DNA of 64,000 nt from Octopus vulgaris (lineage: Eukaryota). Below are positions 8,013 to 58,870 of this stretch, one piece after another (the first letter of the stretch is position 1; each line of letters starts with the position of its first letter). The stretch spans positions 78,058,001 to 78,122,000 of the forward strand of contig OX597826.1 in assembly GCA_951406725.2 (NCBI GenBank), given 5' to 3'. The notes beneath the pieces were generated by a model. That model worked only from the letters and a program-made list of their open reading frames with translations. It had not been told where the DNA came from and did no database searches. The position numbers were made by a program, and so were the translations under genes.

Positions 8013-8167
8013 ATAAACATGATGGATTCCTGACTGATATTTATATCACGTCACATTTCGATGGCTATAATTTTGCAACTGAAGAGCGGGCCATAGCTAC
8101 GAAATATCGAATGAACAAAAGAGACAGTAACGGCTTTAAATCCTTAACGATTTTATCGATTATGTCG

Positions 8168-8645
8168 ATAAGATCTGGTCATCAAATTTAAGTAGAGACT
8201 TCAAACTTGAAATCTTCAAAGCCACAGTCGAACCAATTCTACTATATGGCTCAGAAACCTGGACGTTATCAAAGAAGCTTGAGAGGCGGTTGGATGGAAC
8301 CTACACTCGCCTCCTTATGCGAGCTCAAAATCTCTCGTGGAAGCACCATCCAACCAAAATGCAAATATATGGGAAACTACCACCTGTGTCATCTCTTGTG
8401 AAAGGTAGGAGAGTCCAGTTTGCTGGACATTGTTGTAGAGCTGAAAACGAGGTAATTTCTACTCTTCTCCTCTGGAAGCCATCTACTCGCAATACCAGAG
8501 GGCGCACACTCTCCTACCCTGATGTAATCTCCAGGGATACAGGCATCCAGCAACAGGATCTCCGTAATGCCATGATGGACCGTGAAGTCTGGCGTAGCAT
8601 GGTAAATTCCATTGTCTCGACCAAGGTCGAACAATGATGATGATG
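8168..8645 (+). mobile_element. 5'-truncated RTE-clade LINE (ORF C-terminus plus (GAT)n tail)
   Basis: Open frame LEIFKATVEPILLYGSETWTLSKKLERRLDGTYTRLLMRA...FAGHCCR...AMMDREVWRSMV, typical of the RTE C-terminal region. The stop runs into TGATGATGATGA. Candidate TSD ATGTCG at 8162-8167 and 8646-8651. Confidence 0.88.
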
Positions 8646-13884: not shown

Positions 13885-14345
13885 TATTATCGTTATTATT
13901 GTTATTTATTGTCTTTGTACAGCTTCTAACGCTGTAGATGTACTACGGTGCCAGCTGTTCACTACCTGTGAACTAAGGTAACACCCCTTATTTTTCGGGC
14001 ACCATCCGGAGTATTCGAGCGGTGCCAGGCAGTGCTGTTTTCTGCAAGTGATCCACCCTTATTGCAGCCCCTATTTGTTCCATGTACTTCTCAAGATTTT
14101 TATTCACTGTTCCTTGGGCGCCGACAATTGTTGTTACTACCTTCTTCAGCGACCACAACTGCTTAACTTCCCAAGCTACCCTGTCATATCTCTCGACTTT
14201 TCTTTCTTCCTTATCGCATACCTTGTTGTCCACTGGGCATGCTACATCTATGATCCAGCATTGTTTGCATTCTTTCTCATTTAACACTATGCCTGGCTTC
14301 CTATTCTCTATCTCATGGTCGCACTGAATCATAAAATCCCACTTA
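13885..14345 (-). mobile_element. 5'-truncated R4/Dong-type non-LTR retrotransposon (restriction-like endonuclease C-terminus)
   Basis: WDFMIQCDHEIENRKPGIV...CWIIDVACPVD...KVERYDRVAWEVKQLW...IVGAQG...LQKTALPGTARILR is an RLE (PD-D/ExK) domain. The 3' UTR ends in a degenerate (TAA)n run. Confidence 0.85.
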
Positions 14346-14510
14346 AAATCTGCACTTATCGCTTTCTGATGTGTTGTCTATTCTCTATTTGATGTAATTG
14401 GTTCTTAATGCTTGCTCTTGGGCAGCACAGATTAGAGCCTCTGTTTCCGGTTTTAATTCCCTTTTAGTTATCTATAGTCATCTTTCTACATAATAATAAT
14501 AATAATAATA

Positions 14511-24600: not shown

Positions 24601-24747
24601 ATCAAAATAAGCAACAGGACATCAAGTAGTGATGCGGTACGACCGTTTCCATTTAAACAGATGTAATGATTGCATTGTTCAATTAAATGGAGCTGCTTGA
24701 AACGGTCGTACTGCATCACTACTTGATATCCTGCTGCTTATTTTGAT
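24601..24747. repeat. Inverted repeat, 49-bp arms with 3 mismatches (Penelope-like ends suspected)
   Basis: 24601-24649 is the reverse complement of 24699-24747. The inner CCATTTAA/TTAAATGG also pairs. Each arm begins GAAACGGTCGTAC, resembling the 3' half of a hammerhead. Confidence 0.85.
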
Positions 24748-26858: not shown

Positions 26859-28100
26859 CAGGTGTTGGACAAAATAATGGAAACACATAGCATTATAGCA
26901 TCATAGCCTCATAATTTTGAAATATCTATAAAACCGTCGAAAGCTTGTTTATTTTCATGTTTTTCTTTTATTTATTATTAGTATTGCTTAATACGTTTTG
27001 CTAAAATTGATGTTTCTTTTCAGATATCATGAGAAAAAGGTATTTAAATTTCATTAAAATGATAAATCTATCGGACTTTCAAAGAGGCCAAATTGTTGGT
27101 GCTCGTATGGCAGGCGCTAGCGTAACGGAAACAGCCGAAATGTTTGATGCATCAAGAATTACTGTCTGGAAAGTAATGACAGCTTCGAGAAAGAGGGGAA
27201 AACAAAACTCCAGAAGAAAACCAGAACTTTCATATAGGGACCGTCGCAATCTTACGCAAATTGTTAGAAAAGGACACAAAAGTACAGCTCCCAAAATTAC
27301 TGCAGAACTTAATAACCACCTAGAGAACCCAGTTTCCACAAAAACTGTTCGCCGGGAGCTGTATAACGCCTGATTTTACCGGAGTGTTGCAATCAGACAA
27401 CAACTACTTTCAGAAACAAACGTTGCAAAGCGTTTAGAGTGGAGTGAAAACCTACAGAATTGCTCCCTAGAGCAGTGTAAGAATATTATTTTCTCGGACG
27501 AGTATACATGTGGAGACAGCTAAAGAAAGCATTTCAGCCAGTCTGCTTTCTTCCAACTGTTAAACATTGAGGAGGATGTGTGATGATCGGGGGGGGGGGG
27601 GCTATATCTTGGAAATCCACCGGCCCAATGCTTTCCCTTCATGGCAGAATTAATTGGTCAAGACTATTTATGTATTTTATCTGATCAAATTCATCCTATG
27701 GTTGCCGAACTGTTTCCTGAGGGAAACGTAATTTTTCGGGATGATAATGCACCAATTCACACAGCTAAAGCTGTTACTGAATGGCACGAGGAACATTCTA
27801 GAGAAGTTGAACATCTTATCTGGCCACCACACTCCCCAGATCTCAATATTATTGAACGTTTATGGTGCATTTTAGAAAAACAAGTAAGGAGTCGAAATAC
27901 TCCACCATCATCACTACAAAAACTAGCGACTGATTTAGCTGAAGAATGGACAACAATCCCGCTGGAAGCAATTCAAACTTTGTACGAGTCAATGCCTGAT
28001 GGAATTCAAGCTGTAATCACTGCCAAAGGCGGTCCTACCACATATTAAAATAATCTTGTTTGAAATTTTAAGGTGTTTCCATTATTTTATCCAACCCCTG
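26859..28100 (+). mobile_element. Tc1/mariner DNA transposon, DD36E (Incomer-like), full length but decayed
   Basis: TA on both sides. 28-bp TIRs CAGGTGTTGGACAAAATAATGGAAACAC (26859) and GTGTTTCCATTATTTTATCCAACCCCTG (ends 28100), with 2 mismatches. Length 1242 bp. Transposase pieces include a HTH region (LSDFQRGQIVGARMAGAS), IFSDE, and FRDDNAPIH...WPPHSPDLNIIE. Confidence 0.95.
27029..28048 (+). pseudogene. Tc1-family transposase pseudogene
   Basis: ORFs 27029-27373 (DNA-binding domain) and 27641-28048 (catalytic C-terminus) are separated by stops and frameshifts. 36 residues lie between the second D (DNAPIH) and the E (DLNIIE). Confidence 0.92.
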
Positions 28101-32968: not shown

Positions 32969-32999
<31 letters not shown>

Positions 33000-33440
33000 G
33001 GCAAGAAGAAAATGGCGGGGATCGAGAGGCAGTATGCATCAACTGTTAGGCATTATATTATGTCTATTTATGTCTATTTAAATAGACATAATATAATGTC
33101 TAATATTTGATGAATACTACTTCTGGATTCCCTCCATTTTCTTCTTGCCGTATAAATTAAGAGTAAAACCACTTGTTACCATTGCCACAGCAGGAGATGT
33201 ATTAACACATGAGCTGTAAAAGCCGGACTAGATTATTCTATGCGCAACTCCATTGTCTCCCGAGACAAAAAGGCTGCCAACAACAACAACCCTCACCCAT
33301 TTATTACGCTCAGTTATGTAATTGCCATGCAATAACCAACACTTGTCTATTAATATCTGGGTGTTCTACCAGCAGTATATTGGACAGATATTATCCCTTA
33401 GTTGGTTGGATTCACAACCTCTAACTCTCTTGGAAGTATG

Positions 33441-51104: not shown

Positions 51105-51750
51105 ATCTGCCCCCCCCCCTCCCCAAAAATTTCGGGCCTTTTGCCTAGAGCAGAAACGAATAAGTTTATGTAAGGCGGCGAGTTGGCAGAAACGTTAGCA
51201 CGCCGGGCGAAATGCTTAGCAGTATTTCGCCTGCCACTACGTTCTGAGTTCAAATTCCGCCGAGGTCGACTTTGCCGTTCATCCTTTCGGAGTCGATTAA
51301 ATAAGTACCAGTTTCGCACTGGGGTCGATATAATCGACTTAATCTGTTTGTCTGTCTTTGTCTTCTCTGTGTTTAGCCCCTTGTGGGTAGTAAAGAAATA
51401 GGTATTTCGTCTGTCTTTACGTTCTGAGTTCAAATTCCGCCGAGGTCGACTTTGCCTTTCATCCTTTCGGAGTCGATTAAATAAGTACCAGTTACGCACT
51501 GGTATCGATATAATCGACTTAATCTGTTTGTCTGTCTTTGTCTTCTCTGTGTTTAGCCCCTTGTGGGTAGTAAAGAAATAGGTATCTCGTCTGTCTTTAC
51601 GTTCTGAGTTCAAATTCCGCCGAGGTCGACTTTGCCTTTCATCCTTTCGGGGTCGATAAATTAAGTACCAGTTAAGTACAGGGGTCGATCTAATCGACTG
51701 GCCCCCTCCCCCAAAATTTCGGGCCTTGTGCCTAGAGTTAGAAAAGAATG
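51105..51750 (+). mobile_element. SINE family A, tandem array with a 180-bp period
   Basis: tRNA-like head GGCGGCGAGTTGGCAGAAACGTTAGC with a GAGTTCAAATTCC B-box. GTTCTGAGTTCAAATTCCGCCGAGGTCGAC recurs at 51241, 51421 and 51601. Confidence 0.85.
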
Positions 51751-52246
51751 TGAAAGTTCCAGTTCTAGCGTGGGAAGACTCAACTTGAAGAGTAATGGGT
51801 TCAATCAAGTTTAAGTGCCTCAGACGACTGAATCTCCATGCTGACGACTGTCTACTTTATTCATTCACCCGATCTGTCTGGGTGATGCAACACAGATATA
51901 AACACACTGGACGTTTCATGCCTTCACCGTGCCACATATTTAGCGACAACGGACGATGTTATATTTATGGTCATTAAACTCTTAATAGATTTCACATCAC
52001 TTCGCAATGCAATATTGACTAAAATAAATTTGTCAGTCGGCACGAGGTGAGAGAGAGGGAGAGAGGGAGAGAGAGAGAAGGTGAGGGGGAAAGAGAGACA
52101 GAAACAGAGAATGAGTGTAAAAAAAAACAACATAAGAATGATTGCTATCTCATATTAAAATATTAAAATATTTCATTCCACAACAAAACTAAAAATAAAT
52201 AATAATAGTAATAGCCATGATAATAATACTAATAATAATAATAATG

Positions 52247-52388
<142 letters not shown>

Positions 52389-53445
52389 TAATAATAATAA
52401 TAATAATAAAGGAGATAGGAAAATATTAATAACCATAAAAATAATAACAATGATTATTAATATTTTGATTGTTAATATTGTTATTATAAGGATGATAATA
52501 ATAATCAGTCTTAATAAATTTATTATTGAAAATATGTCTTGATGGAAGCAATATTTTTATATCTCATAAGACGTTATATCAGATAGATAAGTAACCTTTC
52601 ACCAACAAATAAATAAATCAAGTGATCGATCACCCATATACCACCTCCAAGAAATATTATAAAACAGAAAAATTTTGTATTTTCATCTCTCTGTCTCATT
52701 CACTTCTGCCTTTCTTTTTTTTTCTGCGCTTTATTTGTTGTTTTATTTTTCTTGCTGCATCTCTCTGTCTGTTGGTCTCTCTCTCTCTCTCTCTGTTCCT
52801 TTATACATATATATACATACATATTGCCTTTAATTCTGTTATTAATTTAGTCAATAGACCGCGGTGATACTGGGGTATTACCTTCAATGGCTTCAATCAA
52901 TTATATCGACCCGAGTATTTAGTCTGTTACACCTTTTATCGATCTCTCATTACATGTCTTTAGAGTGTTACCTAGTTTTGCAAACTTAAATGCCATAAGA
53001 TATTTACACCGATTTGATAGTCAAACAGAGAGCCGCACTGAGGCGATGGTATAAAGAACGAGTACAACAACCAGTGTGTGATATTGGGAGGAACTGCGAT
53101 GGACTTAATGCAAACACCTTTAAAAGCAGAGACAACCATCATGTGTATTGCTTTAGTTGTAGAAGGAGAAGTATCGCATTTAACCCCAGTATCTCAAGTG
53201 TTTTGTTGAAAGCGATGGAATCGAAAATATTCAAATAACAGAGAATATCCTAGACAAGATTCCTACGTACACCAACAAATAAAAGGTATATATTTCATGT
53301 TAACCCGAGAAATTTCATATTTCTGCAAAAACCTTGATAGATTTTCACTTCTTCACTTCTTATTAGCCAAATATTTTTTATGGAAATTGTAACCAAACAT
53401 TCAATAAATAAACATGGGGTGAAATTTTAAGAACTAGATGAATTA

Positions 53446-53824
53446 TTGGAGTAAAGATTGTTTGCCAACATAACATGGCAGTCCTGGTTTAGGACGAATG
53501 TTGCTGTAATTTAGCACCCAGAGACATCGTCTCCAGCTGGCTATACCACACGATCTGTGTCCTTATATTTTCGAACAAGGGAATCTAGCACCCCCACTCA
53601 GCTCAAACAATATCTGTGTATCGTAATTTCCGGGTTATTTCCCTTCATCAGCACAGAATAATTGTTCGGCTAGAGGTGGCGCTGCTAAATTCCCGTTCAA
53701 AATATAAAGACACAGATCGTGTCGTATAGCCAGCTGGAGACGATGTCTCCTGGGGCTAAATACCAGCAACATTCGTCCTAAACCAGGCCTACCATGTTAT
53801 GTTGGCAAATAATCTTTACTCCAA
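53446..53824. mobile_element. Fold-back element: ~170-bp inverted arms enclosing a hammerhead motif
   Basis: Left arm TTGGAGTAAAGATTGTTTGCCAACATAACATGG... is the reverse complement of the right arm ...CCATGTTATGTTGGCAAATAATCTTTACTCCAA. Pairing continues, with indels, up to TCTGTG (53613) / CACAGA (53657). Confidence 0.9.
53613..53657 (-). ncRNA. Type I hammerhead ribozyme motif (one deviation at the base of stem II)
   Basis: Minus strand: UCUGUG-CUGAUGA-A GGG AAAUAA CCC G-GAAA-U UACG A-UA^CACAGA. Stem I is 6 bp, the core CUGAUGA and GAAA are intact, and the cleavage triplet is AUA. Confidence 0.65.
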
Positions 53825-54770
53825 AGCATTGTTGCTGAATATCTCTCCTTGTGAAATTTAAAAATAGTAATTTTCTAGATGAATTATTATTCCGCTGATT
53901 CAGAGCACGGTAAAGATGAGCCATACCAATTCGAAAATAAGGTGCAGTTGCACCTTTTACTTATTGCAGGTATTGCAAAGGATCACGCGGTTATATTTGC
54001 GTGGATTGGAAACTAAAAATTACGATATGAAATTTGTAAACTGAATTTATCCCGTGGGAAGAAAGTCGGCCGATTTTGAGGCTATTAAAAAATACCTCTT
54101 AGATATTTCATGTATCGGTTGAAAAACAAGATTTTGTTATTTTTTAAGACGGAGTTCCAACGCACCACTATAGTTGATAATCCATCATTACCAGCAGAGA
54201 ATTAGCGGTGCTGGACTACATATATGTATGTGTGGAGAGGGTTGCATGTTTGCAGGAATGCATATGAACTGGACCCTCATGAAAACATCGTTAATTTCAC
54301 TTTTACTTATTTGACCAAGGTTTCACAAAAGATTTGAAACACACGTCTTGACACCCATCCTATTTGAATTTAATTACACAATAAAATAATGTTTTTTTAG
54401 CGTATGTTTTTATATATATATATTATTCATAATGTCCAAAGTAATTTTTTTTTCCTAGATGTTTATATATATCGACTAATTCCGACTACTTACTGTTATT
54501 AACAATCATTGCTTTGTTTGGGTTATTTGTATCTTTAATGTACAAAAAAATAAATATACCATTTAAAAAAAAAACATTTTGTCTTTTTAATGTTTATTTT
54601 TTATTCGATAAGGATTTTTGTTTGTTTGCTTTCATTCATGTATTTGTTTTATTTGTGTGTACATTGTGATAAACAGATTGCTGTAGATATTTGATATTTC
54701 TCTAACAATAACAGTAAACCTCTCTCTTTATCTCTTTGCACACATACAAATGTGTGTGTATATATGTATA

Positions 54771-58100: not shown

Positions 58101-58413
58101 ATATATTGTATAAAAGATGGTGGGTAAGGCCAAAAACAATGCGAAATGCAAGATAAATCACACAAGAAAACAAATATGTAAATTAATGAAGACTTACCTT
58201 GTATTCAATATTTTGGGGTTATGGCCTCATTTTCAAGAAATTGACGAATGTTGCCGGCAACATTACTCAATTTCTTGAAAATGGGGTCATGACCCCGAAA
58301 TATTGAATATAATGTAAGTTTACGTTAATTTACATATTTGTTTTCATGTGTGACTTACTTGCATTTACTTCGCATTGTTTTTGGCCTTACCCACGATCTT
58401 TTATACAATATAT
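58101..58413. mobile_element. 313-bp near-perfect palindrome, probably inverted Penelope-like pseudo-LTR ends
   Basis: Centre AATGTTGCC|GGCAACATT at 58255/58256. Ends ATATATTGTATAAAAGATGGTGGGTAAGGCC / GGCCTTACCCACGATCTTTTATACAATATAT. Each arm carries a hammerhead-like motif. Confidence 0.85.
58272..58307 (+). ncRNA. Minimal hammerhead variant (U3-A8 core, palindromic stem III)
   Basis: UUC-UUGAAAA-U-GGGGU CAUG ACCCC-GAAA-UAUU^GAA. A mutated mirror copy lies on the minus strand at 58204-58239. Confidence 0.45.

Positions 58414-58452: not shown

Positions 58453-58870
<418 letters not shown>

Follow-up and report, generated by a model that had tools for sequence, protein, structure and literature searches.

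A giant hairpin in genomic DNA with a hammerhead ribozyme motif at its apex raises the question of whether it is an RNA device in its own right or the trace of how a mobile element was inserted. We examined such a hairpin in a window of 64 kb, meaning here the whole stretch of DNA that was analysed, which is microsatellite-rich animal DNA with dispersed retroelement and DDE-transposase remnants. DDE transposase remnants (Pfam DDE_3, E 2e-14) and two LINE-like frames recognized by eye occupy 27011-28048, 8140-8637 and 13988-14377, and at 51222-51761 a dispersed SINE-like repeat occurs as three 180-base units in tandem.

Evidence on the family to which the hairpin belongs was drawn from contigs of public sequencing runs aligned to positions 53100-54200, under three organism labels (A, B and C). 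Three DNA runs contributed 10,871 (A), 7,293 (B) and 9,772 (C) aligned contigs, and two further runs guessed to be RNA contributed 869 and 111. The run of organism A may be the window's own source, and organisms B and C are independent. These contigs give ends, variants and junctions rather than full copies, strand or expression, and their depth is not copy number, falling wherever the locus copy has private changes.

A long hairpin capped by a hammerhead core

An earlier, sequence-only reading of this locus described two arms of about 170 bp that pair continuously into a minus-strand hammerhead. The arms themselves are real (Table 1), and the minus-strand fold reaches -281 kcal/mol (z -28.7), a value equalled or bettered in none of 100 shuffles. 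The pairing is uneven rather than continuous, with 110 of 119 alignment columns paired in the outer arms and 47 of 59, with 7 gap columns, in the inner part (Fisher p 0.024); the paired share is 92% for the outer ~118 bases and 80% for the inner ~55. Mismatches between the arms show a G.U bias toward the hammerhead strand of only 4 to 1.

Table 1. Features of the hairpin insertion (positions in the window)
Feature	Position	Strand	Description
Left direct repeat	53434..53447	.	14 bases; 53446-53447 either element or target
Left arm against right arm	53446-53618 and 53652-53824		inverted; 157 of 178 alignment columns paired
Left outer arm	53446..53562	-	element's 3' region to fixed end 1 (53448-53450); tail-less
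Helix I, 3' strand	53563..53618	-	starts at predicted cut; family-typical sequence
Hammerhead core	53619..53651	-	stem II of 3 pairs with A.G base mismatch and 6-nt loop; 2-pair stem III
Helix I, putative 5' strand (inner right arm)	53652..53706	-	6-bp stem I, small internal loop, imperfect extension
Right outer arm	53707..53824	+	putative inverted, 5'-truncated second copy of element's 3' region
Tail	53821..53877	+	53-57 bases; ends at fixed end 2; one side only in locus copy
Right direct repeat	53875..53888	.	first 3 bases are element's end

The type I hammerhead motif proposed for the minus strand was confirmed, with its core and helices I-III where they had been placed and a predicted cut at 53619/53618. 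The core sequences CUGANGA, GAAA and UH and all three helices are present, and the landmark positions are C3 at 53651, A 53644 opposite G 53631, G12 at 53630, U16.1 at 53620 and A17 at 53619. A hammerhead descriptor found this one match in the 64 kb, compared with none in 100 shuffles of the window and none in 2000 shuffles of the element. The suggested check against the Rfam hammerhead model turned out negative, with no match at the gathering score nor at E<=10; the remainder of Rfam gave two chance matches (E 4.1 and 8.3). Loops 1 and 2 may resemble those of the Schistosoma hammerhead. A reading frame starting from an AUG in the core stops early.

The insertion contains no coding frame, and an open reading frame with reverse transcriptase (RT) and GIY-YIG domains is absent from it. 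None of five stop-free frames in the arms matches a Pfam family above the cut-off. One match between a 33-residue arm frame and a protein (P0001, E 1.9e-7) was rejected, being a sum of weak 22-bit matches to a protein built of 63-residue tandem repeats. No second copy of the hairpin was found within the window, no tRNA in 52800-54500, and no locus with a 24-base arm pattern in metagenome, viral and prokaryote contigs.

Limits of the insertion and its target site

Summed contig depth rises from 45-66 on the flanks to about 1e5 to 1.5e6 inside 53433-53876, and the 126-base apex alone is covered by 957-1,448 contigs per DNA run. The interpretation of the locus as a non-coding mobile element is upheld: it is a highly multi-copy repeat whose core motif is family-wide and which is linked to Penelope-like elements and retrozymes. 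The hairpin is an old copy of an animal repeat that is very common, and it consists of two end pieces, placed back to back, of a likely Penelope-type element.

The insertion spans about 53448-53877. Its right end had previously been set at 53824, but the sharp end of family coverage (111-130 contigs per DNA run) lies at 53877, behind which 121, 111 and 130 contigs of the three DNA runs have loose ends leading into unrelated AT-rich flanks. On the left, 58, 72 and 68 contigs have loose ends before 53450, also into unrelated AT-rich flanks, and 75, 62 and 75 have loose ends before 53446 with a sequence that resembles the reversed tail. Since 53450 mirrors 53820 and the second end is 53877, the distance between the two fixed ends of the family is 57 bases. 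Depth in the tail stays at family level across 53840-53876, and the predicted ribozyme cut lies about 170 bases upstream of end 1.

The 14-base direct repeat noted in the earlier reading is exact. It overlaps the ends of the element by 3 bases on the right and up to 2 on the left, and we read it as a target-site duplication of 9-14 bases around arms and tail. The chance of an exact 9-mer at a fixed register is about 8e-6. Positions 53434-53436 have the same letters as the last 3 bases of the element, a match that is likely to represent priming microhomology. A search for shared ends and target-site duplications, recommended in the same reading, had a positive outcome, in that two family ends were mapped independently and the exact repeat of 9-14 bases abuts them.

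The insertion site is filled in organisms B and C, where contig records 17 and 32 bridge the junction; the insertion is therefore old, and we infer that it is roughly as old as the split between A and B. An unoccupied version of the site was not seen. The left flanks differ by 7.3% (B) and 3.7% (C), and the outer arms of the locus copy differ by 6.0%. The copy at the locus is old and probably dead, with no sign of host function.

Two origins for the arms

The differences between the two arms are of two kinds. In the outer arms they look private to the locus copy: in one bin most family depth (89-95%) sides with the left arm, in the next (81-83%) with the right. In the inner arms both versions belong to the family: loose ends at 53605 give a consensus identical to the left inner sequence (agreement 0.76-0.97), and at 53655-53664 the right inner sequence retains 68-89% of core depth. 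Because inner differences are at family level and outer differences are private, the arms have two origins. The inner right arm appears to be original to the element, as the 5' strand of a long, family-wide helix I and not as a reversed duplicate of the left arm; the outer right arm with its tail would be a second, inverted copy of the element's end. Helix I (53563-53706) folds at -62 kcal/mol (z -8.4). At 53604 the locus copy is missing one base that is present in 56-83% of depth.

Of the 24 loose-end rows listed among 291 (18 of the 24 from DNA runs) and the three joints listed, none has left-arm sequence beyond stem I (53657). On the basis of those rows, the idea that every copy was joined at its 6-bp stem I, with the cut RNA as second template, is unsupported as the main route; the join is placed instead at the far end of the family-wide helix of ~55 pairs.

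Contigs of organism B indicate what lies beyond helix I in relatives of the hairpin. Four of the eight pieces listed span the left arm, the core and the inner right arm and then stop aligning at 53705-53706, with unaligned remainders of 31, 10, 133 and 4 letters. Past 53706, 37 contigs of this organism carry one common, different sequence (agreement 0.84), which among the rows listed occurs in organism B only and probably represents the upstream part of a non-hairpin parent. We infer that the remainders of records 18 and 22 belong to the same sequence. This sequence also contains a small perfect 5-pair hairpin. The drop in depth over 53670-53700 is not readable as a spread of join points, since private changes also lower depth.

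Neither orientation of the outer arm with its tail has a significant fold (z -1.2 in the element's sense and -2.2 on the opposite strand). In the centroid structure of the element's sense, whose whole fold has the same z of -1.2, an 8-pair helix between outer arm and tail (53764-53771/53830-53837) brackets end 1.

Variable junctions within the family

Joins from the left arm to the right arm or tail occur at many points, for example 53512-53743, 53584-53709 and 53575-53838; these come from the 12 rows listed of 133, in which 1-36 letters and no hammerhead lie between the joined parts. Same-strand skips account for 6 of the 15 joint rows listed out of 317, and non-hairpin relatives are present among the family contigs. 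Summed arm depth is 2.0-6.4 times core depth, so that many arms must occur without the apex. From the variable junctions and the non-hairpin relatives it follows that the rod was likely formed at insertion and is not a replicating RNA. Each insertion thus seems to have produced a hairpin of its own length, and the locus copy is the long form, whose first strand passed the ribozyme.

No tandem junction is present at the locus, and the flanks behind 53877 are heterogeneous; a single contig has one joint that goes back 60, and contigs collapse tandems. Many joints and loose ends cluster at 53719 and at its mirror near 53547-53554, which suggests that a subfamily carries a small insertion or that truncation is favored at this place.

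The 64-kb window holds three further fold-back stubs. The largest (58101-58413; 312 bases) lies beside (TA)n, is unrelated to the hairpin, is 88% self-complementary (fold z -27) and has a U3-A8-type hammerhead-like core at 58275 on the plus strand, with a decayed mirror copy in its other arm; it is likely another Penelope-type stub. Adjoining this hairpin, a fragment between (TA)n runs (58507-58716) has a hammerhead-like core with a 4-pair stem II at 58590 on the plus strand. The two smaller stubs, at 32992-33157 (159 bases) and 24601-24747 (145 bases), adjoin (TA)n runs, and a core scan found no hammerhead core in either.

State of the ribozyme

Two details of the locus copy take on a different meaning when placed against the family. 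The A.G mismatch at 53631 had been considered a defect that may inactivate this copy. At the base of stem II, the family has C at 53631 in 50-69% of depth, giving A.G, and the rest has A.A; the A.G mismatch is therefore the family majority. In all variants listed an A.G or A.A stands between the core and the G-C pairs, with no paired G10.1-C11.1 closing helix II. The UACG cap described for stem III is present in the locus copy but is a decayed form, as 60-88% of depth reads a palindromic CGCG. CpG decay in the locus copy affects 53624-53625, where the family majority (60-88%) has the palindromic loop III AUCGCGAU.

In the available text of PMC4209133, a palindromic loop III is the hallmark of metazoan hammerheads that act as dimers. 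The predicted self-duplex of loop III has an energy of -10.1 kcal/mol for the family majority and -0.5 kcal/mol for the locus copy, and the majority sequence pairs through loop III in a two-molecule fold. By analogy, the ribozyme in the parent RNA would likely cut as a dimer through its palindromic loop III. For the 71-nt domain of the locus copy, the lowest-energy fold is without the active core (-20.6 kcal/mol, compared with -15.6 kcal/mol when the core is forced). The locus copy is probably inactive, as had been suspected, but what marks it as damaged is the loss of the dimer palindrome and not the A.G mismatch.

Variation within the family is dominated by CpG sites. Eleven substitution sites in 53580-53705 reach 6%, of which 8 are at CpG. 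In a comparison of the core with neutral change, sites with at least 6% variation number 0 of 11 in the core versus 3 of 66 among other non-CpG sites (p 1.0), and few non-CpG sites vary anywhere. Compensatory change or covariation in the helices is absent from the contig variants listed. One non-CpG variant, at 53642, is found in 9-19% of depth and disrupts the central pair of stem II, and the variants listed include none that would restore it; it possibly marks an inactive subfamily that still spread.

Comparison with known elements

The layout of the insertion has precedents. Endonuclease-bearing (EN+) Penelope-like insertions often comprise an inverted, 5'-truncated copy and a 30-40-base tail at one end, as described in the accessible part of PMC8557442, and Pen2a_Av of Adineta vaga (PMC3846280, available text) is flanked by duplications of 8-10 bases and has palindromes where its inverted copies meet. 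The proposal that a central hammerhead capping a rod constitutes a separate architecture finds no support, as the combination of inverted ends, one-sided tail and duplication is already in these two papers. The locus matches EN+ Penelope-like insertions in its head-to-head inverted 3' ends with the inverted one 5'-truncated, in the optional tail between two fixed 3' ends at one end only, in the short duplication around the whole unit (~8-10 bases published, 9-14 at the locus), in the type I hammerhead within the repeat and upstream of the 3' ends, and in the palindrome at the junction. It differs from them in being non-coding and in its longer tail (53-57 versus 30-40 bases). It also differs from Pen2a_Av, in that the junction palindrome at the locus would be the ribozyme's own ~55-pair helix I, with the hammerhead core as the hairpin loop.

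A biochemical parallel is offered by PAc, a Poseidon element of the green anole. In the available text of PMC11167929, its purified protein makes cuts in both strands of the target and extends each of them, favors AT-rich DNA and begins reverse transcription at two internal sites that bracket the tail. The family likewise has two fixed 3' ends that bracket a tail, downstream of a hammerhead, and an AT-rich target, and an enzyme that acts on both strands in this way would produce the layout seen at the locus. PAc is, in contrast, autonomous, its open reading frame starts in stem II and its protein-assisted cleavage has been measured, whereas cleavage at the locus is a prediction; the frame from the AUG in the core of the locus stops early.

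Metazoan non-LTR retrozymes resemble the family in being non-coding, in thousands of copies, with self-paired RNA and a proposed Penelope-like mobilisation (PMC7229834; bioRxiv 10.64898/2026.07.22.740005; both as far as their available text describes). They share with it a canonical-size type I hammerhead with 6-bp helix I, short helix II and 2-bp helix III (PMC7229834). The short palindromic helix III of the family majority, decayed in the locus copy, is another retrozyme trait, and a mismatch at the base of helix II also occurs in HHR_Amex2 of axolotl (PMC7229834). Retrozymes differ, as described there, in being head-to-tail tandem units with circular RNA, while the locus is a single inverted unit. 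They have been argued to derive from the end repeats of Penelope-like elements (bioRxiv 10.64898/2026.07.22.740005, available text). The parent of the hairpin may have been a coding element's end repeat or, alternatively, a retrozyme monomer.

A literature search, which most subscription papers lay outside, found no paper on a hammerhead core as the apex of a hairpin or on Penelope-like twin priming, and the available text of PMC13282606 has zero occurrences of hammerhead, ribozyme and retrozyme. PMC8557442 and PMC13282606 may already include the family in their supplements or repeat libraries. In sum, the hairpin is a known insertion layout and not a new kind of RNA, and it was probably through the hammerhead's own long stem that its halves were joined.

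A proposed route of insertion

The reading that we favor, with a probability of roughly 60%, is that a Penelope-like RT-endonuclease pasted two back-to-back copies of the 3' end of one RNA, joined via helix I of the hammerhead. The parent RNA, in the sense of the minus strand, would contain in order an upstream part, the 5' strand of helix I (~55 nt), the core and the 3' strand of helix I, and would continue through the 3' region, end 1, the tail and end 2. The enzyme would nick both strands of an AT-rich target, each nick priming one cDNA. The left cDNA would start at end 1 and copy the ribozyme, still uncut, together with both strands of helix I. The right cDNA would begin at end 2, hence the tail on the right side, and would halt close to where the helix starts. 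The self-complementarity of helix I would then allow the distal part of the first cDNA to anneal to the second, and trimming and fill-in would leave a hairpin with the ribozyme core as its loop. An earlier stop of the first cDNA would yield a shorter hairpin without the hammerhead. In the search for an autonomous partner with RT and GIY-YIG domains, the arm peptides gave no credible match, and the arm pattern is absent from three public collections.

There are other possible explanations for the hairpin. It could itself be the replicating unit, transcribed and re-inserted with its outer arms rebuilt from one template and its inner helix and ribozyme fixed. The inner asymmetry found family-wide under three organism labels, the resemblance of the outer arms to a single family sequence, and the organism-C pieces 29-31, which reach 53700-53705 where their records end as expected of hairpins in a contig graph, would all fit such a cycle; the many junctions, the 2-6-fold excess of arms over cores, the exit of organism-B contigs from the hairpin at 53706 and the tail-less hammerhead strand of the locus copy do not, and we regard it as unlikely. 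Self-priming, in which a single cDNA bends back along its helix I to start synthesis of the inverted arm, possibly from an antisense transcript, has been proposed for the palindromes at inverted junctions of Adineta Penelope elements (PMC3846280, available text) and could draw on a very stable inner helix (-62 kcal/mol, z -8.4) that ends where the near-identical arms start. Any cDNA primed at end 1 from the hammerhead strand would lack the tail, however, yet the inverted side has one, which is evidence against a plain fold-back of sense cDNA. Self-priming would thus need an antisense template or a second priming event, it explains the apex-less junctions less simply, and it appears rather improbable here.

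Two further hypotheses are highly improbable. One is a DNA transposon of the MITE or fold-back type, with long terminal inverted repeats, a 9-11-base duplication and a hammerhead-like passenger, which would account for the long inverted arms, the lack of coding sequence, the very many copies and the length of the duplication, as Mutator-like duplications are about 9 bases. Cut-and-paste elements require matching termini, and those of the insertion are asymmetrical, with a 53-57-base tail on one side inside the duplication; matching inverted ends are absent, and two alternative ends and variable junctions also speak against it. The sequence-only reading had itself suggested a functional generator of double-stranded RNA, whose transcript self-nicks at the apex and provides a primer, a template or a Dicer/ADAR substrate. 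Such a role could appeal to the extreme stability of the rod and to the family sequence in the two runs guessed to be RNA (869 and 111 contigs). The active core is nevertheless disfavored in the monomer fold of the locus copy, which has also lost its dimer palindrome, and the rod is explained as an insertion product. One putative RNA run (X15) is without cover on the flanks of the locus, so that its contigs need not derive from this locus. There is no A>G excess in the locus copy or in the putative RNA contigs, which have the same kinds of change as DNA runs; the changes of the locus copy against the family are of CpG type, and A>G/T>C places number 5 of 7 in a putative RNA run and 5 of 7 in a DNA run. 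ADAR hyperediting was not seen in the locus copy or the run contigs, and self-nicking into long double-stranded RNA found no backing.

Implications for Penelope-type integration

Returning to insertion by a Penelope-like enzyme, hammerhead mutants of PAc still insert in vitro, so that cleavage is dispensable for insertion in that system (PMC11167929, available text), and the ribozyme in the family described here may accordingly be a passenger. A bolder possibility, which we consider doubtful, is that helix I (~55 pairs) serves as an annealing splint for Penelope-type integration, and maybe as the seed of a hairpin sub-lineage that regenerates its palindrome, in which case the fold would be retained for its role in DNA joining no less than for RNA cleavage. 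If true, long complementarity and not repair microhomology would join cDNAs that are primed from opposite strands of the target. Head-to-head copies with a one-sided tail are frequent among Penelope-like elements, and the in vitro work gives extension of both strands and two starts without a joining step (PMC11167929, available text). In a family with so many copies, whose two ends are fixed and in which joins can be mapped along a long helix that occurs naturally, this joining step could be read from an assembly and tested with a purified enzyme.
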